Part shown: positions 31,353-60,150 of the stretch, piece by piece
How positions within the stretch are numbered: position 1 is the stretch's first letter
Layout: the number at the start of each line of letters is the position of its first letter
DNA from: Longimicrobiales bacterium
GTDB taxonomy: Bacteria > Gemmatimonadota > Gemmatimonadetes > Longimicrobiales > Gaopeijiaceae
NCBI GenBank assembly: GCA_965226375.1
Contig: CBDDCX010000007.1
Coordinates: forward strand, 384,001-448,000
Direction: 5' to 3'
DNA: 64,000 nucleotides
The notes under the pieces: generated by a model
Databases searched by the model: none
Told to the model about the DNA's origin: nothing
What the model saw: the letters and a program-made list of their open reading frames with translations, nothing else
Position numbers and translations under genes: made by a program

Positions 31353-33014
31353 ATGCTGATCGAGCTCCGTGTCCGCGATTACGCCGTCATCCATGATCTC
31401 TCCCTGGAGTTGGGTCCCGGTCTGAGCGCGCTCTCAGGTGAGACCGGGGCGGGAAAGTCGATCATTGTCGGTGCCCTCTCGCTGCTGTTGGGCGAACGAG
31501 CGTCGAGCGGAACCGTGCGCGTCGGGGCGGAGCGGGCCCTGGTCGAGGCTGTCTTCGACGTCTCGGAGCGACCCGAAATCCTGTCGCGTCTGGCCGAGCT
31601 CGGCCATGAGGTCGAGGACGGCCTGCTCATCCTCCGGAGGGAAGTAGCCGCCGAGGGAAGGAATCGCGCCTGGATGAACGGTTCCCCCACAACGGCGCGA
31701 GTCGTGGGCGAGCTCGGAAGGACGCTCGTCGATCTCCACGGGCAACACGAGCACCAGACGCTCCTGAGACGGGAGGCGCAACGTAACATCCTCGATGCTT
31801 TCGGTGGCGCAGAGGATGCCGCCACGGAAGTGTCCGAAGCGTTCGAGGCCCTCGCTGGTCTCGAGGCGAGACTCGCGGAGCTCAAGGAGCGACGTAGGGA
31901 GCTCGAGAGCCGCGCGGATTTTCTCCGGTTTCAACTCACCGAGATCGAAGAGGGCCGGGTCGAGATCGGGGAAGACGTGGCCTTTGAAGACGAGTTGGGT
32001 CGGCTGGAACACTCCGAGGAATTACTTCGGGAGGCTGATGCGATCCACACCGAGCTCTACGGTGCGGACGGGGCCATCACAGACCGTGTCTCGCGGCTGC
32101 TCGGCTCCCTCTCCCGCATGAAGGAATGGGATCCGTCGCTTCAGACCCGCCACGACGCTCTTGAGGAAGCCTATCACTCCTTGGCCGACGTGGGGCGTGA
32201 GCTGGGTGATTACGCCGGTAACATCCTACACGACCCCGGCCGCCTGGAGGAAGTGCGGGAGCGACTAGACCTGATACACCGCTTGAAGCGCAAATACGGT
32301 CCGGAACTGGCCGATGTGGTCGAGACGCGTGCGCGCTTGAGCGGTGAGTTGAACGAGCTCGAGGGAGCCGGATGGGATGAGGAGGCCCTTCAGCGGGAGG
32401 TCGACGAGGCCGGTGCGTCTTTGGCGGACTCCGCTGAGGAGCTGACGGCCAGGCGACAGCAGGCTGCTCGTCGGCTCGAGACTGAGGTCGAGGCCCTTTT
32501 GCCGGATCTGGGTCTCCCCGGTGCGACCTTCCAGGTGCCGCTCGAGGGCCTGCCCTCCGTGGGAAGACATGGAGCCGAACGGGTGGAGTTTCTCGTTTCG
32601 GTCAACGCAGGATTCGCGCCCCTGGCCCTGGGCCAGGTGGCCAGCGGGGGTGAACTCTCGAGGGTCATGCTGGCCCTCAAGGCCATTCTGGCTCGGGTAG
32701 ATGAGGTGCCGACTCTGGTTTTCGACGAGATCGATGCCGGCATCGGTGGCCAGGTAGCTACCCTGGTTGCCGCCAAGCTCAAGGAGGTCGCCCGGTACCA
32801 TCAGGTGTTCGTAATCACCCACCTACCTCAGTTGGCCTCGCGCGCCCGCAGCCATCTTCTTGTCGAGAAGAGGGAACGGGATGGACTGGCGGCTACGAGC
32901 GTCGATGCGCTGCAGGGCGAGGCGAGGGTGAGGGAGATCGCAAGAATGCTCGGAGGTGATCCGGAGTCGGAGACATCGCGCGTACATGCTCGCGAGCTCC
33001 TGGTGACCGGCTGA
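31353..33014 (+). CDS. recN: DNA repair protein RecN
   Basis: GETGAGKS, ASGGELSRVMLALK, FDEIDAGIGG, ITHLPQLA. Confidence 0.97.
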   Translation: MLIELRVRDYAVIHDLSLELGPGLSALSGETGAGKSIIVGALSLLLGERASSGTVRVGAERALVEAVFDVSERPEILSRLAELGHEVEDGLLILRREVAAEGRNRAWMNGSPTTARVVGELGRTLVDLHGQHEHQTLLRREAQRNILDAFGGAEDAATEVSEAFEALAGLEARLAELKERRRELESRADFLRFQLTEIEEGRVEIGEDVAFEDELGRLEHSEELLREADAIHTELYGADGAITDRVSRLLGSLSRMKEWDPSLQTRHDALEEAYHSLADVGRELGDYAGNILHDPGRLEEVRERLDLIHRLKRKYGPELADVVETRARLSGELNELEGAGWDEEALQREVDEAGASLADSAEELTARRQQAARRLETEVEALLPDLGLPGATFQVPLEGLPSVGRHGAERVEFLVSVNAGFAPLALGQVASGGELSRVMLALKAILARVDEVPTLVFDEIDAGIGGQVATLVAAKLKEVARYHQVFVITHLPQLASRARSHLLVEKRERDGLAATSVDALQGEARVREIARMLGGDPESETSRVHARELLVTG

Positions 33015-49343: not shown

Positions 49344-51887
49344 TTACTCGCCGTTATACGGCTTCCGGGGCTTGCTGGGTGTCCTCAACTCCATGCGACG
49401 GTGCTTGTCCGCTTCCTCCAACGCTTTCTGGATTCGGGGACAGGCATCCCTGACCGCATCCAAGTCGTCTCGCCGTAATTCGTATAACGCGCACGGGGTT
49501 ACGGCACGGCACGTTGCCGTGCGCGGAGTTCCGTGCAGCAACGCCATCTCCCCGAAAAAGTCGCCCGCCATCAGTGTCGCCATGTCCCGGGCGAGTCCAC
49601 CGTCCTGTCTGGATACCCGAACCACTCCGCGAGCCACCAGATAAAGCGACGATCCAGAGGCTCCCTGCTGCACGATGACCTCGCCGGCCGGCGCTGTCCT
49701 CCGCCTCAGCTTCGACGCGACAATGGCGAACTCCTCTTGATGCGTGTCCACGAAGAACGGCACCTTTTTCAGGAGTTCCTCCGGGTCGACCGCGAGCTTC
49801 CCGATCTTGCTCGCGCGGAGATCACGGAGTTCGTCCGCCATCTCTGCGAGCATCGCTTCGGCCACGCCCTCCGGGATGATGCCGGCGTGCGCTTTGGCTT
49901 CGATGGCCTCACGTTCGGCGTGGAGTACCATGCGTTCCGCGAGCCGTTCCTGCGTGGAATGGACGAACTCGGGGAACTGCTCGGCGTTCTGATCGAGACG
50001 CGCGCGTGCGTTCTCCTTCCAGTACTCGTAGGAGGCCCGAATGTCGTCCACGATTTCTGGTCGGGCCGCCTCGGCCTCTCCGACGGTGTCTAATTCCTCC
50101 AACACCTGAAGACTACCACGCGACCGAGCCCACGCGATTTCGTAGTCCCGAGCGGTCCGCTCCGCGCGCATGCTCTCCGCCCACGCCCCAAGGCCTGGGA
50201 CGTGATCCATGAGGCGGTAGACCACGTTTTCGATCCTCTCACCCGTAGGCGGATGGAGCGTGAACTCGGGCAGCCGTCCCTCGTGTCGGATCCCCTCGGT
50301 CTGCAGCTCGATGGAGTGGACGAGATTTCGGTAGGTCCGTTCCGTGAGATGACCCCGGGAGAACATGGAGTAGTAGATGGTGTTTTCCTCACCGAACGAG
50401 CGGAGATAGAGGAGTTTTCTCTCCTGCTCGAGGTCCAGATCCTCCCGGCGAAGCTCGGCCAGGTCAGACTTCATTGATTCAATGCTCGCTTCGCAACGGG
50501 AGCGGACCCCTTCGGCGATGCGCGGAGGAAAAAGCCCGCCGGTTTGAAGGTCCGGGATCTGTTCGAGCGTGCGCTGTTTGGCAGACAGCAGCCCTTCGAG
50601 GCGGGCGACACGATCCGACAGCGGTGGAACGTGAAGCCCGAACTTCTTGACGAGAGCTTCTATGGAGAGGCCCTGCACAAGGAGCGTGAAGAGGACGGCC
50701 CCCATGACCAGCGCAACGATGACCTCGTTCAGGTCCCCGAAACCCGGCACTTCTCTCCCCAGGTCCGGAAGACTGAGGGCGATGGCCAGAGCGACGGCAC
50801 CCCGGAGCCCTCCCCAGAACATCACGGTCTGATAGTCCCGGTCGATCGGATCAGAGCCCGGGAGCCGACCGATGCCGGGCACCAGCCCGAAGATCACCGT
50901 GGCCCGGGAGACGAGCATGGCCGCGATCACGACCACCAAGAGAGGTGCGCTGCTCGCAAGGGCCCCGAGGTCCACCGCCAGGCCCACCATCAAGAAGATG
51001 AGAGCGTTGGCCACCATGGCCATGTACTCCCAAAAATGCTCGAGGTAGCCTGCCACGGATGGGGATATCTTGGCCTTTCCCCAGCCTCCGATGAGCATGC
51101 CGGCCATAACCGTAGCCATCACTCCGCTCAGGTGGAGCACCTCTTCGGCCAAGAGGAACGAGACATAGGCCAGGACGGTCGTGAGCGTCACCTCGATAAA
51201 AGTGTCGGCCTCTACCCGGCCCAGGATCATTCCCACGACCAGGGCCGACGCCCACCCGACCATCAGTCCGCCGAAGAACACGAATAGGAACTGAACACCA
51301 CCAAAGACGATGGCCTCCTTGGTGATGACGCCGGCCAGAAGGATGCCCGTCAAGATTTTCGCCAGCACGATTGCCGTCGCGTCATTGAAGAGGCTTTCGC
51401 CCTCCACGAGGATCGTAAGCCGCTTGGGCGCGCCGAACTGGCGGAAGAGGGAAATCACCGAGACAGGATCCGTGGCGCTGAGGATCGACCCGAGGAGGAG
51501 TGCTTCGAGCCAGTCCAGCGGGGTGGCTACGACCACGATTGCTGCGATGAGACCGGTGGAGATGAGCAGGCCGGGCACGGCCAAGGTCAGCACCGCCGTC
51601 AGGTTCTCACGAAGCGCCCGCGCCTCGAGGTTGAACGCAGCCTCGAAGATCAGGGTGGGAAGGAAGACAAAGAAGGCGATTTCCGGGGCGATCTGCAGAT
51701 TCGCGATGGGTTCCAGAATCGCCCCGCCGAAGCGGGCCAACTGTGCCAAGGCGATCCCCGTGACGACCAAAGCCACCGTGAACGGAACCTTGATGCGTTT
51801 CGAGATGGCCATGACCCCGGCCGCGACGAGCAGGAGCCCGACCGTGGCGCCGACCACCTCGATCACATGATGGCCGGCTTCATCCAC
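49344..51887 (-). CDS. CPA1 Na+/H+ antiporter with cytosolic helical region and C-terminal cyclic-nucleotide-binding domain
   Basis: FLPTLIFEAA, SATDPVSV, EGESLFNDAT, WGGLRGAV; C-terminal FFGEMALLHGTPRTATC. Confidence 0.93.
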   Translation of the reverse strand: MDEAGHHVIEVVGATVGLLLVAAGVMAISKRIKVPFTVALVVTGIALAQLARFGGAILEPIANLQIAPEIAFFVFLPTLIFEAAFNLEARALRENLTAVLTLAVPGLLISTGLIAAIVVVATPLDWLEALLLGSILSATDPVSVISLFRQFGAPKRLTILVEGESLFNDATAIVLAKILTGILLAGVITKEAIVFGGVQFLFVFFGGLMVGWASALVVGMILGRVEADTFIEVTLTTVLAYVSFLLAEEVLHLSGVMATVMAGMLIGGWGKAKISPSVAGYLEHFWEYMAMVANALIFLMVGLAVDLGALASSAPLLVVVIAAMLVSRATVIFGLVPGIGRLPGSDPIDRDYQTVMFWGGLRGAVALAIALSLPDLGREVPGFGDLNEVIVALVMGAVLFTLLVQGLSIEALVKKFGLHVPPLSDRVARLEGLLSAKQRTLEQIPDLQTGGLFPPRIAEGVRSRCEASIESMKSDLAELRREDLDLEQERKLLYLRSFGEENTIYYSMFSRGHLTERTYRNLVHSIELQTEGIRHEGRLPEFTLHPPTGERIENVVYRLMDHVPGLGAWAESMRAERTARDYEIAWARSRGSLQVLEELDTVGEAEAARPEIVDDIRASYEYWKENARARLDQNAEQFPEFVHSTQERLAERMVLHAEREAIEAKAHAGIIPEGVAEAMLAEMADELRDLRASKIGKLAVDPEELLKKVPFFVDTHQEEFAIVASKLRRRTAPAGEVIVQQGASGSSLYLVARGVVRVSRQDGGLARDMATLMAGDFFGEMALLHGTPRTATCRAVTPCALYELRRDDLDAVRDACPRIQKALEEADKHRRMELRTPSKPRKPYNGE

Positions 51888-51888
51888 G

Positions 51889-52899
51889 TCAGGCTCCGGT
51901 CGTCACGGAGGGACCACGCACGGCGATGAGCAACGCGTTTGAAACGCTCTCGAGCCCCAGTTCGTGGATCTTCTTTCCCGCCGCCGGGGACGACTCGGGA
52001 ATGGTGACTTCGTCAATGCGCAGGTTGGCGTCCTGGTCGCGGAGCATGACGTCCAGGAAGTTCACCACGGTGGGCCTGATGAGCTCCGAAGCCAGACGGA
52101 GCCCACCGATATAGGTCGGCGACACCACGGCGTTCGCTCCGACTCGCCGGATCTTGTCCTCGGAGCGGATGTCGGTGACGCGCGACACGATACGAATAGA
52201 GGAATTCAGTTGGTGGGCGCTCAGGGTGATGACAACGTTCTCCTTATCGTTGTCCGTGCATGCGACGATTCCTGCGGCCCTCTCGACACCCGCGGCGATC
52301 AACACTTCGTCGGACGCGGGATCCCCGACAATGAGCGGTGTATCCGCGATTTCGCCGCGCAAGTAGTCGACCTGGTCCCGCTTCTCACAGACCAGCACGA
52401 CCTGTCTGCGTACCGAGAGGAGCTCTTTGGTGGTGTAGACGGCTGTGCCTCCGGCACCGCACACGATCAAATGCCCCGACATGCTGCCGATGGTTTTCTC
52501 CAACTTCCGTCTCTTGAAGACGTGCCCGATCTGTCCCTCGAGTATGAGGGCCGTCGCGGTCGTGACAAAGTAGAGCACTCCGCCCATCCCCACGAGAATG
52601 AGCACGGCCGTGAAGATGCGTCCGCCGGGACGAGCGCTCATGTCGACGATCTCACCGAACCCCACGGTCGTGAGCGTAATCGCCGTCATGTAGAAGGCGT
52701 CCACCCACGCGACCCTCGGGTCGATGATGCGATACCCGACCACGCCCACCACCATGACGCAGCAAAGGAACAGCGCCGCAACGCTCAGCCGCAGCCTCAG
52801 CTGTCGCAGATCTTCATCCACCTCCGTGGGCGTGACGTCGTATACGTTCAAGTTTCGCAGGCTGCAGAAGAAGTACAGCGGGCCGCGTTGCCGATGCAA
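51889..52899 (-). CDS. 2-TM potassium channel with RCK (TrkA-N/TrkA-C) domains, MthK-like; C-terminus appears truncated
   Basis: Filter TLTTVGFGE, HLIVCGAG Rossmann strand, AAGVERA, GGLRLASELIRP; start uncertain. Confidence 0.88.
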   Translation of the reverse strand: MHRQRGPLYFFCSLRNLNVYDVTPTEVDEDLRQLRLRLSVAALFLCCVMVVGVVGYRIIDPRVAWVDAFYMTAITLTTVGFGEIVDMSARPGGRIFTAVLILVGMGGVLYFVTTATALILEGQIGHVFKRRKLEKTIGSMSGHLIVCGAGGTAVYTTKELLSVRRQVVLVCEKRDQVDYLRGEIADTPLIVGDPASDEVLIAAGVERAAGIVACTDNDKENVVITLSAHQLNSSIRIVSRVTDIRSEDKIRRVGANAVVSPTYIGGLRLASELIRPTVVNFLDVMLRDQDANLRIDEVTIPESSPAAGKKIHELGLESVSNALLIAVRGPSVTTGA

Positions 52900-53086
52900 C
52901 GGCCTGAGATTCTAGGCGGAGCGATACTGGTTCACTGACGTGAATCTGCCCCTCAGATCTGCCGAAAAGCAAGTAAGTTTGCCCATTGTGGCACTCCGGA
53001 GCGGCCATTGCCCCACCCCGACCACCACGGCATGTTTCGGCACTTCAGTCTTACGAATAGCGGCTCCAAAGCAGGGCAACGGGTAA

Positions 53087-53686
53087 TTGGCGTACATCCC
53101 ATACGTTCCGTACGAAGAGGCCGAGGGCCCGCTCGCCGAGCTGTATCGGCAATTCGGAGGCTCCGAATCGAGCGTGGACAACATCATCCGGATCCACTCC
53201 TTGAGCCCACCCTCTATGGAGCACCACGTACGCCTCTACGCACACCTCATGCGAGGCAAGTCACCATTGAGCCAGGCACAGCGCGAGATGATCGCGATCA
53301 CGGTCTCGGCTGTGAACGACTGCTTCTATTGAATCAACCATCACGGGGCGGGACTCCGTACGCTCACTGAAGACGCCGAGTTGTCCAGGGCCCTGGCCCG
53401 CGACTATCGGGAGGCCGATCTCGAGATCGACGATCGGGCGATGCTCGACTACGTGGTGAAATTGACCCTGACACCCTGGAAGATTGGCGAGGCCGATGTC
53501 TCACGACTTCGGGAGGTGGGATTCGACGATGCCGGCGTTCTCGATATCTGCCAGATCGCCTGCTACTACAACTATGTGAACCGCCTGGCCGACGGGCTGG
53601 GTGTCGAACTGGAGTCCGACTGGAAACGAGGCCCTTTGACCCTCACCCGGGCCGAGTTCGAGGAACGACGACGGACCACGGAATGA
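53087..53686 (+). CDS. AhpD/carboxymuconolactone-decarboxylase-family peroxidase-related protein, probable selenoprotein (in-frame TGA 53330-53332)
   Basis: ORFs 53087-53332 and 53381-53686 share a frame; REMIAITVSAVNDCFY-TGA-INHHG gives CxxU; downstream LREVGFDD..YNYVNRLADGLGV is the family C-terminal half. Confidence 0.85.
53343..53359 (+). promoter_or_regulatory. Putative bacterial SECIS stem-loop
   Basis: ACGGGG-CGGGA-CTCCGT hairpin with G-containing loop starting 16 nt after the UGA. Confidence 0.55.
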
Positions 53687-53928
53687 TCGAGCTCACGGGC
53701 CATGACCTCTCGTTGGAGACCATCGAAGCGGCGGCGGTCCACCTCGTCGTGCCTCGGGTGGGGTCCGTGGGCGCCAGCGGTGATCTGGCGCCTTTGTCGC
53801 ACATCGCGCTGGCTCGGACCGGAGAGGGCAAGGTCGAATTCCAGGGCGTGATCCGAGATACGAGAGACGTGTTCACCGAGCTGGGCGTTGAGGCTGTCGA
53901 GCTTCGCGAGAAGGAGATAGAGCTTTGA
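53683..53928 (+). pseudogene. hutH: Histidine ammonia-lyase remnant (81 aa, large deletions)
   Basis: HutH-like N-terminus MIELTGHDLSLETI fused to the MIO segment GSVGASGDLAPLSHIA...LREKE; full enzymes are ~500 aa. Confidence 0.85.
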
Positions 53929-55592
53929 GTACGATTGCAGAGCCGCGGACGATCCGTGCAGCCCGCGGGAACGAGCTTTCTTGTCAGGGGTGGACACAGG
54001 AAGCTGCCCTGCGAATGCTCATGAACAACCTGGATCCAGAGGTCGCCGAGCGGCCGGAAGATCTGGTGGTCTACGGGGGAACCGGCCGAGCCGCCCGGAG
54101 TTGGGAGGCGTTCGATGGCATCGTGGCGACCCTTAAGGAATTGGAGGACGACGAGACGCTTCTCGTGCAGTCCGGCAAGCCGGTTGGGGTGTTCACCACA
54201 CATCCCGGCGCTCCTCGGGTCCTGATCGCCAACTCGAACCTGGTAGGCCGGTGGGCGGACTGGGACCACTTCAACGAGCTCGAACGGAAGGGTCTCATGA
54301 TGTACGGCCAGATGACGGCCGGCTCGTGGATCTACATCGGAAGCCAGGGCATCCTACAGGGCACGTACGAGACCTTCGGCGCCATGGCGCGACAGCACTT
54401 CGGTTCCAGCCTGAAGGGCCGCTGGGTGCTCACCGGCGGAATGGGGGGCATGGGGGGTGCCCAGCCGCTTGCCGCCACCATGAACGGCGGCGCCATCCTA
54501 GTCGTCGAGGTGGATCCGACGCGCATCCAGCGGAGGCTCGACACCGGATATTGCGACCGGATGACTGACGATCTCGGTGAGGCGCTGGAATGGACGCGCG
54601 GGGCCGCCGACCGAGGTGAGGCCCTCAGCGTCGGGCTCGTGGGCAACTGTGCGGAGGTGATCCCCGAAATTGCCGCTCGAGGCATCGTCCCCGACTTGCT
54701 CACCGACCAGACGTCGGCTCACGACCCCTTGAACGGCTACGTGCCCGCCGGCTTGTCTCTGGAGGCCGCGGAGGCCCTACGTACACACGATCCTGCGGAA
54801 TACGTACGCCGCTCCATGGAGTCCATGCGGGCCCACTGCGAGGCCATGGTGGAGCTCATGCGCGCGGGTGCGCACACCACCGACTACGGCAACAACCTTC
54901 GTACGCAGGCGCTGGACGCCGGCTTCGAGGACGCTTTCGCGTTTCCCGGCTTCGTGCCCGCCTACGTGCGTCCTCTGTTCTGCGAGGGGAAGGGGCCGTT
55001 CCGCTGGGTGGCGCTTTCGGGTGACCCCGCCGACATCCACCGAACCGACGATCTCGTGCTGGAGATGTTCCCCGACGACGAACATCTCGTGCGGTGGATC
55101 GAATTGGCACGGGAGAAGATTCATTTCCAAGGTCTGCCTGCCCGAATTTGCTGGCTCGGGCAAGGAGAGCGGGCCCGTTTCGGTGTGGCTATGAACGAGT
55201 TGGTTGCCAGTGGAGAAATCTCCGCGCCCATCGTCATCGGGCGAGACCACCTCGATACGGGATCGGTGGCGTCGCCCTTTCGTGAGACCGAAGCGATGCT
55301 CGACGGAAGTGATGCGGTGGCCGACTGGCCGATCCTGAACGCCCTACTGAATACGGCGTCGGGGGCGAGCTGGGTGTCGTTCCACCACGGGGGTGGTGTC
55401 GGCATCGGCAACTCGCTCCATGCGGGCCAGGTCCTCGTGGCCGACGGCACGCCCGAGATGTCCGAGAGGATCGGCCGTGTGCTCACAAATGATCCCGGCA
55501 TCGGTGTGGTGCGTCATGCCGACGCCGGTTACGAGAAGGCGGTAGAGACCGCCGAGCGAGAAGGACTTCGTCTTCCAATGCGTGAGGGTTAG
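53925..55592 (+). CDS. hutU: Urocanate hydratase
   Basis: [62 protein letters not shown]. Confidence 0.98.
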
Positions 55593-55598
55593 CAGCAG

Positions 55599-57431
55599 AT
55601 GTCACAAAGGATCGTCGAGTGTGTCCCCAACTTCTCCGAAGGGCGAAATCCCGCCGTCCTGAAGGAGATCACCAACGCCGTCGAGGCCGTTCCGGGCGTG
55701 AGCCTTCTCGACGTCGATCCCGGGGCCAATACCAATAGAACCGTCGTCACGTTCGTCGGCCCTCCTGAAGCCGTGGAAGAGGCCGCCTTCCAGTGCGTAG
55801 CCCGTGCGGCCCAGCTCATCGACATGCGGGAGCACCAGGGGGCACACCCCCGGATGGGGGCCACCGACGTGGTGCCCTTCGTGCCGGTGTCCGGCGTGAC
55901 CATGGAAGAGTGTGTGGAGATGGCCCGACGCGTCGGAGAGCGGATCGGCTCGGAGCTGGATATTCCGATCTTCCTCTACGAGAACGCGGCGACTCGCCCG
56001 GAACGGCGCAACCTGGCACAGGTACGATCCGGCGAGTACGAGGGCATGGCCGAAAAGCTCAAGGACCCGGATTGGCATCCGGACTTCGGGCCGCGGGACC
56101 TGAACCCTACTGCAGGAGCCACCTGTGTGGGCGCTCGGGAGTTCCTGATCGCGTACAACATCAACCTGAATTCCACCGACCGGCGTTATGCCAACGACAT
56201 CGCTTATGCGATCCGTGAGCGAGGGCGATGGAAGCGGGTCGGCAACACCGACCCGTTCTACTACAAGGGTGAGGTAGTGCGCTTCGCCGAAGACGGCACC
56301 TATCCCTGCGGTCCCTGCGACTTCCTCGGCGGAAGCTTTGCGGAGTTGGAGACCCACTACCGAGATGTCCACGGCGGCGATCTTCGGGCGCGGTATCAGG
56401 CGCTGGACATCGATCCCGACGCTCCGTCCGGCCCCGTTTTCGACGATGGCCTGTTTACGGACGTGAAGGCCATCGGTTGGGTGATCGACGAATATGAGCG
56501 GGCTCAGATCAGCATCAACTTCACGAACTACAAGGTGAGCCCTCCTCACGAGGTGCTGGAGGCGGCTCGGGAAGAGGCACGCAAGAAAGGTGTGATCATC
56601 ACTGGCTCCGAGCTGGTGGGCTTGATCCCGTTCGAGGCGCTGCGGCAGGCCGGTGTCTTCTACCGTAAACGGGCCATGAAGTCGACAGGCATTCCGGTTC
56701 CCGATCTGCTGGAGACGGCCATTCAGTCCATGGGGCTGAGAGATGTGGCGCCATTCGACGTCGAGGAAAAAGTGCTCGCCGCACCCACTGCGGAGGGGCC
56801 GCTGGTGCGACGACCCACGTACGACTTCATCGACGAGGTCTCGCGGGAGACACCCGCGCCGGGCGGTGGATCGGTAGCTGCCTTGGCTGGCGCTCTCGGC
56901 GGGGCGCTGGCATCGATGGTGGTGAATCTCTCGGTGGGGAAGGGTGAGTTTGACGATCGCTACGAGCAGCTCTGTGCGATCGCGGAGCGCGCTCAAGCCG
57001 TGAAGGATTTGCTCGTGCGTATGGTCGATGAGGATACACAGGCCTTCGACTCCGTCCTTACCGGCATGCGCATGCCGAGGGACACGGAGGAGGAGCGGGT
57101 TCTTCGTTCCGCGGCGATCCAGGAGGGTTATAAGACCGCCACCCTCGTGCCCCTCAGGACGGCTGAAGGATGCCTTGAGGCCATGACGCTATGCCGGGAG
57201 ATGGCCGGCATGGCTACGCCCGAGATGATCAGTGACGTGGGATCCGGGGCTCTCATGGCCCATGCAGGCCTCAAGTCGGCTATCTACAACGTGCGCATCA
57301 ATCTGCCGAATATCTCTGACGACGCGTTCGACAAAGAGGTGCGTGGCAAACTGGATGGGCTCCTGCAGGGGGCCGACGAAGTTGCGCGTGAGGTGGAGGG
57401 GTTCGTAGAAGCGGCGCTGGAGGTCGGTTGA
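55599..57431 (+). CDS. ftcD: Bifunctional glutamate formimidoyltransferase / formimidoyl-THF cyclodeaminase (FTCD)
   Basis: ECVPNFSEGR, NRTVVT, HQGAHPRMGATDVVPF, GAREFLIAYNIN; C-terminal PAPGGGSVAA, NVRINL. Confidence 0.95.
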   Translation: MSQRIVECVPNFSEGRNPAVLKEITNAVEAVPGVSLLDVDPGANTNRTVVTFVGPPEAVEEAAFQCVARAAQLIDMREHQGAHPRMGATDVVPFVPVSGVTMEECVEMARRVGERIGSELDIPIFLYENAATRPERRNLAQVRSGEYEGMAEKLKDPDWHPDFGPRDLNPTAGATCVGAREFLIAYNINLNSTDRRYANDIAYAIRERGRWKRVGNTDPFYYKGEVVRFAEDGTYPCGPCDFLGGSFAELETHYRDVHGGDLRARYQALDIDPDAPSGPVFDDGLFTDVKAIGWVIDEYERAQISINFTNYKVSPPHEVLEAAREEARKKGVIITGSELVGLIPFEALRQAGVFYRKRAMKSTGIPVPDLLETAIQSMGLRDVAPFDVEEKVLAAPTAEGPLVRRPTYDFIDEVSRETPAPGGGSVAALAGALGGALASMVVNLSVGKGEFDDRYEQLCAIAERAQAVKDLLVRMVDEDTQAFDSVLTGMRMPRDTEEERVLRSAAIQEGYKTATLVPLRTAEGCLEAMTLCREMAGMATPEMISDVGSGALMAHAGLKSAIYNVRINLPNISDDAFDKEVRGKLDGLLQGADEVAREVEGFVEAALEVG

Positions 57432-57443
57432 AACGGTAGACCG

Positions 57444-57505
57444 CGCTCAGGTCTGCAGGGGGAAGGCGCTTAGGCGTCCAGGGAAAAACGCTCAGGCCTC
57501 TAGGG
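57444..57505 (+). repeat. Three direct repeats CGCTYAGG-N5-AGGG at 22-23 bp spacing upstream of hutI
   Basis: CGCTCAGGtctgcAGGG (57444), CGCTTAGGcgtccAGGG (57467), CGCTCAGGcctctAGGG (57489). Confidence 0.6.
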
Positions 57506-57567
57506 GGCGAGTACGGGCCCCTGAGGATCCTGGGCGCGCAGAAGACGACAATAGAATAGGACTCCTT

Positions 57568-58794
57568 TTGGCTTTCGACAGTGTTTGGCTGAACGGTCAC
57601 CTCGCCACCATGCGGAGCGGCGGAGCCGCGTACGGGGAGGTGCCCGACGGTGCGGTGGCCGTGACCGGTGGGCGGATCGACTGGGTGGGTCCCAGGTCGG
57701 AACTCCCCGCCGACGACGTAGGTCCGGAGACGGTCGAACACGATGTACAGGGTGCCTGGCTTACCCCCGGCCTCATCGATTGTCATACCCACCTGGTATT
57801 CGCAGGCGACAGGGCGGACGAGTTCGAGGCGCGCCTTCAGGGTGCGTCGTATGAAGAGATCGCCCGCTCGGGTGGGGGCATTCGCTCCACGGTCCGTGCC
57901 ACTCGCGAGGCGACCCCGGAAGAACTGGAAGCCGGCGCTTCCGCGAGGGCCGGCCAGTTGCTGAGGCAGGGCGTCACCACCGTCGAGATCAAGTCGGGAT
58001 ACGGGATGGATGTCGTCACCGAGTTGGCGATGCTGCGAGCGGCACGGAGCGTAGGCGAAAGTCTGCCACTCACGGTGAAGGCCACGCTGCTCGCTCTCCA
58101 TGCCCTCCCGGCGGACTTCGACGGGCGTCGCGAGGACTTCCTTGCTCTGGCGCTGAAGGAGCTCTTGCCCGCGGCCGTAGAGGAGGGGCTGGTCGATGCA
58201 GTCGATGCCTTCTGCGAGGGCATCGCGTTCACCCCTGACGAGTGCGCCACATTTTTCCGCGCCGCCACTGACCTGGGGCTTCCGGTCCGACTCCATGCGG
58301 ACCAGCTGTCGGACACGGGAGGTGCCGCCCTGGCGGCCAGTTTCTCGGCGCTCTCCGCCGATCATCTCGAGTACACTTCGGAAGAGGGTGCGCGTGCGAT
58401 GGCCGCCGCCGGGACGGCGGCCGTTCTGTTGCCCGGCGCGTTCTACTATCTGCGCGAGACCCACACCCCTCCAGTAGACGCATTCAGAGAGCACGGTGTC
58501 CCGATGGCTCTGGCCACCGACGCGAACCCGGGCTCGTCTCCCATCCTATCGATCCTGACGATCCTCAACATGGGCTGCACTCTCTTCAGGTTGACTCCGG
58601 AGGAGGCGCTGGCGGGTGTGACGAGAAATGCGGCAGGAGCTCTGGGCCTCGGGACCGAAGCGGGCACTCTGGAGCCGGGAAAGCGAGCGGACCTGGCTCT
58701 TTGGGACGTGGAGCACCCGCGCGAGCTGGCCTACTGGATCGGCACGAATCCGTGCCGATCCGTGGTCAAGGACGGAGTTCCGGTCGGGACCTAG
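57568..58794 (+). CDS. hutI: Imidazolonepropionase
   Basis: PGLIDCHTHLVFAG.RA.EF, GVTTVEIKSGYG, DAFCE, HADQL, SADHLE, ATDANPGSSP. Confidence 0.97.
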   Translation: MAFDSVWLNGHLATMRSGGAAYGEVPDGAVAVTGGRIDWVGPRSELPADDVGPETVEHDVQGAWLTPGLIDCHTHLVFAGDRADEFEARLQGASYEEIARSGGGIRSTVRATREATPEELEAGASARAGQLLRQGVTTVEIKSGYGMDVVTELAMLRAARSVGESLPLTVKATLLALHALPADFDGRREDFLALALKELLPAAVEEGLVDAVDAFCEGIAFTPDECATFFRAATDLGLPVRLHADQLSDTGGAALAASFSALSADHLEYTSEEGARAMAAAGTAAVLLPGAFYYLRETHTPPVDAFREHGVPMALATDANPGSSPILSILTILNMGCTLFRLTPEEALAGVTRNAAGALGLGTEAGTLEPGKRADLALWDVEHPRELAYWIGTNPCRSVVKDGVPVGT

Positions 58795-58809
58795 TGTCTT
58801 GTCCCCCGG

Positions 58810-60150
58810 TCAGCCCCCTCTGGGGCGCCGCACTGCCGCTCGGGACCGGCCCGAGGAGCCGCTCCGTGACGGAGCGCTGCGAGCGGAAGATGAGCGGCTG
58901 GGTGCGCTTCGGGTCGACGACGAGCGAGAGGGCGCCGCACGTGCGGAACTCCGACCCGAGCTTCTGCTCGGCGCGGCCGAGCGGGGCGTCGGGCGGCTAC
59001 TGCGTGCGGAACTCCGACTCGGTGCCGATCTCGACGGGGCTCGCCTCGTCGCACTAGACGGTGCACTTCTCGCGCGGCTCGGAGCTACCCGAGGTGCAGA
59101 ACGTACCCGACTCGGAGTCGCTTGTCGCGTGCCGGACCTCGACGGTGCAGACCGTGTCGTGGCGCTCGGGCGCTGGCGGGTCGAACGCGTGGTCGACGAA
59201 GGCCGGCCGGTGCTCGACCGGCGCGCAGTCGGTGTGGCCCGGGCCGACGTTGCACGCCTCGATGGCGCCGCACGTGTTACTGTCCGGCTGGGTGCTCGGG
59301 TGCCGGACACGGTCGACCGTGTGTTGGTCCGACTTCGCACGGCATCCGAAGGACGGGCTCGCGTGGCCGTAGCTCGGGCTCCCGTCACCCGGCTGCCGGC
59401 TGCGCGGCCGGCTGAAGCACGAGTCGCCGGTGCCACGGCCCGACTTGCCGTCGAGTTCCGCCGAGCAGAGCGGGCGACGATGGCCGACACGTCACTCCGC
59501 GCGGCGCTATTCGCGCTGGGCGTGGTCGTCCCCGACCGCGGAGTGGCCACCCGTGAAGCGGCAGTACGCCGTGGCGACTCCTTATAACCCGTACCGTTGA
59601 TGGCTCGACCTCGTCCGGGCCGCCAGGCGACCGCTGAGCGAGGCACTACGTAGGTGGGTTGCGCGTGATAATTGTAATAGCCGTAACTCCCATACCCGTG
59701 CCCACCACCGTAGTGGTTCCCGTACCCAAACCAGTTGTAGGCGTAGAGGTTGCCGAAGCTCAGGTGGGTGCCCACGCCCCAGTAGGGATACCCCCAGCCG
59801 TATCCCCAATAGCCTGGATAAGAGAAGCGCCAAGGCACGTAACCGTAAGACAGACTGACGAAGTGGCTACCGTGATAGTGATCGTCATAGCGATAGCGGC
59901 TGGTATAGCCTGCATCGTAGGCGCCGTAGAGGCAGGGAAAGACGTACCAATCGTAGTAGCCGTAGTCCCAGCAGGGATCGTCATAAGCGGGTTCGTACCA
60001 CGGGTCCACGCTCGTGTAGGACAACCCCACTCCAAAACCCACTCCGAGCGAGAAGGAGAAGCTGCTCCAGGAATACTGTGCAGCCACCGCTTCCGGACGC
60101 CAAGTGAGGGCGCAACCGAGTATCAACGCCGTTCCGATCAGCCTACGCAC
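58810..60150 (-). CDS. Exported protein with Tyr/Gly/Trp-rich region and long Ser/Arg/Thr/Ala low-complexity tail
   Basis: Signal peptide MRRLIGTALILGCALTWRPEAVAAQ; AAGGAGG SD; many RSAPSR-type repeats. Confidence 0.8.
   Translation of the reverse strand: MRRLIGTALILGCALTWRPEAVAAQYSWSSFSFSLGVGFGVGLSYTSVDPWYEPAYDDPCWDYGYYDWYVFPCLYGAYDAGYTSRYRYDDHYHGSHFVSLSYGYVPWRFSYPGYWGYGWGYPYWGVGTHLSFGNLYAYNWFGYGNHYGGGHGYGSYGYYNYHAQPTYVVPRSAVAWRPGRGRAINGTGYKESPRRTAASRVATPRSGTTTPSANSAARSDVSAIVARSARRNSTASRAVAPATRASAGRAAGSRVTGARATATRARPSDAVRSRTNTRSTVSGTRAPSRTVTRAAPSRRATSARATPTARRSSTGRPSSTTRSTRQRPSATTRSAPSRSGTRQATPSRVRSAPRVAPSRARSAPSSATRRAPSRSAPSRSSARSSRPTPRSAAPSRSSGRSSARAAPSRSSSTRSAPSRSSSARSAPSRSGSSGRSRAAVRRPRGG

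Follow-up and report, generated by a model that had tools for sequence, protein, structure and literature searches.

We predict that a TGA codon at 53330-53332 of the window, the 64,000-nucleotide stretch of DNA analyzed here, is very likely read as selenocysteine (Sec) with the help of a downstream hairpin, and that the open reading frames (ORFs) on its two sides belong to one intact gene for an AhpD-like protein, likely a thiol/selenol oxidoreductase. The initial annotation had proposed that the two ORFs share a frame and are split only by this codon, and translation of the frame bears this out: between the TTG at 53087 and the TGA at 53684-53686, the sole internal stop is the TGA at 53330-53332. 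Translation with table 11 yields one ORF at 53087-53332 (81 aa) and another at 53381-53686 (101 aa), neither of which reaches the 81.8-bit cut-off of the family model TIGR01926 (40.5 and 65.9 bits), whereas the 199-aa read-through protein passes it with 137.7 bits. The TTG start is common to loci L014, L015 and L044, and the context of read-through at the TGA is AVNDCFY-U-INHHGAG. The gene has the following features.

53087..53686, + strand: AhpD-like (TIGR01926) selenoprotein gene, 199 aa, in one frame from a TTG start to a TGA stop.
53285..53344, + strand: codons of the AhpD proton relay, E67...C79-F-Y81-U82...H86, invariant in 27 aligned homologues.
53330..53332, + strand: predicted Sec82 codon TGA, the second position of C79-x-x-U82.
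53343..53359, + strand: predicted bacterial SECIS, a 6-bp stem (ACGGGG/CTCCGT) with a 5-nt loop (CGGGA).

The claim that the TGA stands at the second Cys of the family motif agrees with the alignment of homologues, in which the last position of C79-F-Y-U82 pairs with Cys: the codon at the Sec82 column is TGA in 28 of 36 loci and TGC or TGT in the other 8. Named relatives belong to the Longimicrobiales/Gemmatimonadota. In a set of 61 related genomes, the gene family was matched in 32, 24 with a TGA in the match (22 of these were checked at the Sec82 column itself) and 8 without. Either selA or selB was present in 23 of the 24 TGA genomes, and in the remaining one, G009 (78% complete), selD contains a TGA. 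Neither gene was detectable in seven of the eight Cys genomes; the other Cys genome, G031, carries the full Sec machinery. This correlation between TGA and machinery rests on few independent events, because seven of the eight Cys rows form a single separate clade (support 100/100) in the tree, from which, as from alignment A2, L021 and L022 were left out. One Cys orthologue, L028 (G003:C163), is likely a reversion from Sec to Cys, since it is nested inside the TGA clade (support 95/89) and shares its gene order, including the linkage to hutH, has lost the hairpin, and comes from a genome (G003, 78% complete) in which selA, selB, selD and tRNA-Sec were not found.

A search for the Sec machinery, which the initial annotation had recommended, was run on the source genome (estimated to be 90% complete). 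The genes taken as the criterion for bacterial selenoproteins, selA, selB, selC and selD, were all found, at the following positions.

C8:1329876: selA, 464 bits.
C7:545741: selB, 332 bits.
C6:613956: selD, 373 bits, with an in-frame TGA of its own in HGAG*ASK.
C7:594801: tRNA-Sec, 69.5 bits against a gathering score of 47, with a UCA anticodon.

All four map outside C7:384001-448000, as expected from the earlier statement that none of them lies in the window. Use of Sec is wide in the Gemmatimonadota, with selA present in 37 of the 61 relatives and matches to the gene family in 161 of the 301 genomes of a class-wide search. Together, the TIGR01926 score, the Sec machinery and the conservation of the TGA support the proposal of a 199-aa selenoprotein that standard annotation splits, and the annotation should be corrected to this one protein in place of two fragments.

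A stem-loop with a G in its loop, reported to begin 10 nt downstream of the TGA, was found as described, with positions 53343-53348 pairing with 53354-53359 and the loop lying 16 nt after the UGA. The bacterial SECIS model outlined in a 2026 review asks for a loop of 3-9 nt, a stem of 4-16 bp, a UGA spacing of 16-37 nt, a G in the first two loop positions and an energy of -7.5 kcal/mol or lower (PMC13188914). The loop length (5 nt), stem length (6 bp), G (loop position 2) and spacing (16 nt) of the hairpin all fall within this model. Its free energy is -7.2 kcal/mol when folded alone, compared with the model constraint of -7.5; a 33-nt window around it reaches -8.8 kcal/mol, but in another fold. 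The local RNA has a minimum-energy fold other than the hairpin, whose pairs form with a mean probability of 0.21-0.42, and folding was no better than in shuffled sequences (z of +0.29, +0.78, -1.04 and +0.80 in four windows).

Support for the predicted hairpin is comparative, rather than coming from the folding of a single sequence. The full six-pair stem can form in 24 of 28 TGA loci, compared to none of 8 Cys loci. At the codons under the stem, the 24 TGA loci of the HHGA type have GGR (24/24), GCG (24/24), CTY (24/24) and CGT (23/24), codons that account for 43, 35, 49 and 15% of the respective usage in the source genome and have a joint expectation of 1.1%, a contrast that is inflated by shared descent. 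Across 14 aligned loci, pairing is kept in 84 of 84 cells, and a single change affects both sides of a pair. Covariation in these 14 loci is weak, with 29 of 500 shuffles scoring as high, and is too sparse to count as proof. Both the geometry and the conservation in relatives are in line with the initial view of the hairpin as SECIS-like.

The residues of the predicted active site, E67, C79, Y81, U82 and H86, are identical in 27/27 aligned homologues. An AlphaFold2 model of the protein, folded with Cys substituting for Sec, has a pLDDT of 92.9, and its helices 63-76 and 80-94 form a helical hairpin that bears the relay residues. In the PDB, the model matches (TM ~0.8) the TIGR01926-type Cys proteins Mlr4105 (3C1L), 2PFX, 6K40 (titled D. 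radiodurans alkyl hydroperoxide reductase, which we take to be DR1765), 2OYO and 2PRR. These share 27-35% identity with the source protein and have the motif NxCxYCxxxH, with Cys where the source gene has Sec; the clade of the source gene differs from them in an extra C-terminal segment of ~20 aa (W180...EEF). Sec82 occupies the place of Cys133 of Mycobacterium tuberculosis AhpD, the more reactive cysteine of that enzyme.

The relay has been described as E118, C130, H132, C133 and H137 in M. tuberculosis AhpD and as E36, C48, Y50, C51 and H55 in Pseudomonas aeruginosa PA0269 (PMC3141380), and the spacing of E67/C79/Y81/U82/H86 is identical to both. The likeness lies in this helical-hairpin Glu/Cys/x/Cys/His arrangement; both proteins are distant from the source protein (profile E of 2e-4 for 1GU9 and 4e-13 for 2O4D), and the source gene has no ahpC neighbor. 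From the fold and motif we infer peroxidase activity for the selenoprotein, by analogy. The peroxidase activity of PA0269 is weak, at 0.16 uM H2O2/min (PMC3141380), and D. radiodurans DR1765 mutants are described in a review as sensitive to H2O2, with complementation that depends on CxxC (PMC8945050). In the mechanism that we propose, SelB and Sec-tRNA would bind the hairpin with the CGGGA loop, leading to Sec insertion at the UGA. The selenolate at position 82, aided by His86 and Glu67, would then reduce a peroxide or the disulfide of a partner, a selenenyl-sulfide would form between Sec82 and Cys79, and a cellular reductant would restore the enzyme, perhaps by a lipoyl/NADH route as outlined for AhpD (PMC8945050).

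The initial annotation stated that AhpD-like selenoproteins had been reported from genome surveys, and such proteins have indeed been catalogued since 2005. A survey of the Sargasso Sea in that year listed 27 sequences as "AhpD-like protein" (COG2128, CXXU) (PMC1088965), and the GOS survey contained 299 sequences of the AhpD-like selenoprotein family (PMC2398784); the family is common in marine metagenomes. It also goes by the name "AhpD-like 1", is present in BSepDB (PMC13326102) and appears as TIGR01926 with CxxU in a table of the 2026 review, where it is absent from the experimentally verified rows consulted (PMC13188914). Knowledge of the AhpD-like TIGR01926 selenoprotein family seems to be entirely computational; a biochemical test of any kind would therefore be a first. 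The source gene is a further ordinary member of this predicted family, with which it shares a score above the HMM cut-off, the CxxU motif, an in-frame TGA paired with Cys homologues and SECIS geometry within the bacterial model, and from which it differs in nothing of kind. Neither the Longimicrobiales nor the Gemmatimonadota are named in the text of the review (PMC13188914) or of the BSepDB paper (PMC13326102), whose supplements or database may list genes from these groups, and our literature search found no paper on a Gemmatimonadota selenoproteome.

Other (seleno)protein models share the CFYU motif and an AhpD-like fold with the source protein, namely NF041238 (AhpD_rel_CFYUT) and NF053654 (YciW-related). 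Membership in either was rejected, with 66.1 bits against 175 for NF041238, of which only model positions 151-338 of 357 were matched, and 23.8 bits against 310 for NF053654. Membership in TIGR04030 was likewise rejected by profile search.

Downstream, the selenoprotein gene is followed by genes for histidine utilization (hut).

53683..53928, + strand: hutH remnant, 81 aa, an internally deleted histidine ammonia-lyase whose ATG overlaps the selenoprotein stop (ATGA).
53925-55592, + strand: hutU, above the cut-off of NCBIfam TIGR01228.
55599-57431, + strand: formiminotransferase-cyclodeaminase (FTCD), above the cut-off of NCBIfam TIGR02024.
57568-58794, + strand: hutI, above the cut-off of NCBIfam TIGR01224.

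Several internal deletions have left the hutH remnant with its N-terminus, the ASG region and the final bases, and in three of four runs, one of which may be the source sample, near-identical contigs extend across the deletion. No other copy of hutH was found in the source genome, in which hutU, FTCD and hutI are intact. Judging from these genes, the hut route would allow the source strain to use urocanate at best, and not histidine. In relatives, 21 of 22 close loci have a hutH-like gene directly downstream of the selenoprotein gene, with a 4-nt overlap of start and stop in 15 of them (starts picked heuristically), and all six of the neighboring ammonia-lyases that we tested pass the NCBIfam hutH cut-off. 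The selenoprotein gene and the hut genes probably share a transcript. No RNA run was among the public runs listed as containing the sequence. A scan of 52800-59000 for sigma-70 promoters and terminators gave nothing above chance.

One interpretation of this gene order is that the protein is a selenoprotein with a dedicated role toward histidine derivatives, either keeping the thiols of HutH reduced or reductively stripping a sulfur, selenium or halogen substituent from modified histidines before they enter the hut pathway. We regard this as improbable. It would fit the close loci described above and the genomes of the same family, where 26 of the 28 genomes with both positions listed have the selenoprotein gene immediately before hutH (of the 38 family rows, 10 were left out for want of a listed hutH position). 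It would also fit a fold superfamily that includes the reductive debrominase Bmp8, which acts on tetrabromopyrrole (TM 0.74, profile E 2e-6); Bmp8 shares 15% identity with the source protein, and the source locus has no halogenase cluster nearby. However, the arrangement was seen in 0 of 18 genomes of other families, and the presence of an intact selenoprotein gene beside a deleted hutH argues against a tight functional link. Likewise, three genomes that are 93-98% complete (G071, G104 and G238) have the selenoprotein gene with no match to hutH, and nine genomes of genus g6 have hutH with only a weak best match to the selenoprotein (E of 1e-31 to 1e-36, with 42-44% identity where listed) that resembles a distant paralogue. 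Paralogues of the ergothioneine type were also considered and rejected, as the six lyases score as ordinary HutH and HutU passes the urocanase cut-off but neither of the two for thiourocanate hydratase. A literature search found no published link between hut genes and AhpD-like proteins or selenoproteins. The most specific form of this idea, in which the selenoenzyme of this Longimicrobiales family is translationally coupled to the hut pathway as its dedicated first step and reductively removes sulfur, selenium or a halogen from modified histidines or reactivates oxidized HutH, strikes us as a shade less probable still; if true, the orphan TIGR01926 selenoproteins would gain a first specific substrate, and selenium would be tied to the breakdown of histidine. 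The conserved position of the selenoprotein gene ahead of hutH offers a testable but weakly supported lead to a substrate. The simpler reading, and most likely the correct one, is that adjacency to hut reflects inherited gene order, not need.

Alternatively, the TGA could be a real stop that separates two half-proteins, as in a split CMD protein, an explanation to which we give very little credence. An ORF with a TTG start is present at 53381 and short CMD proteins of ~100 aa exist in the PDB, but the stop would fall within the active site, separating C79 from H86, with the loss of residues 82-98, and related contigs lack this TTG, reading C at 53381. Moreover, none of the 36 loci has TAA or TAG at the Sec82 column, compared to 48% TAA/TAG among sampled stops of long ORFs in the source genome. 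Least credible of all is that the gene is dead and the TGA due to nonsense mutation or to an error in sequencing, a reading which might be suggested by the decayed hutH next to it and by an ABC permease elsewhere in the genome that bears an apparent plain nonsense TGA, but which is excluded by the conservation of the TGA column across 27 further loci with identities as low as ~27%, and is further opposed by a TGA somewhere within 145 of the 150 class-wide matches listed (83 further matches are unlisted), by near-identical contigs from four of four runs that cover the codon and end 13-27 letters past it, fewer than the 31 letters needed to bridge it formally, and by the conservation of both ORF halves among the 27 aligned homologues. 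No variant at 53330-53332 was present among the contig rows listed (72 more are unlisted). The initial annotation had named a genome without Sec machinery and relatives with Cys throughout as the case that would speak for such an error, and the presence of the machinery and of TGA in 28 of 36 loci excludes it. We therefore retain the reading of the TGA as Sec.

Further TGA-containing redox genes suggest that Sec is in general use in the source genome. A rough survey of in-frame TGA codons listed 16 of 222 candidates, selD not among them, and so gives less than a complete selenoproteome. A second TIGR01926 gene (L043:1501-2088; G000:C7:342305-342856) scores 115.4 bits and has an in-frame TGA (CHY-U-T), with a 6-bp hairpin (loop CGGGAA) 24 nt after it. 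Four other genes are likely selenoproteins, each with a hairpin candidate: a peroxiredoxin-like UxxC protein (L051:173-817, W-U-PWC), a DsbA-like UxxC protein (L052:108-818, V-U-PWC), a DUF3179 UxxC protein (L053:103-1329, F-U-VIC) and a deiodinase-like protein (L054:119-781, SYT-U-PP). Two candidates were rejected. L055 consists of two adjacent ABC genes, and L056:67-2853 (G000:C5, TGA at 31373) is the ABC permease mentioned above, a member of the ADOP family in which the TGA has a non-Cys context and is probably a nonsense mutation.

Two other parts of the window were noted. On the - strand upstream of the selenoprotein gene, 49344-52899 encodes a divergent potassium channel with a TrkA domain and a CPA1 Na+/H+ antiporter with a fused cNMP-binding domain, and a clustering of neighborhoods suggests that several relatives likewise carry the potassium channel gene upstream. 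Downstream of hutI, also on the - strand, an ORF at 58810-60150 has a middle region rich in Y, G and W and a long low-complexity tail of R, S, A and P.
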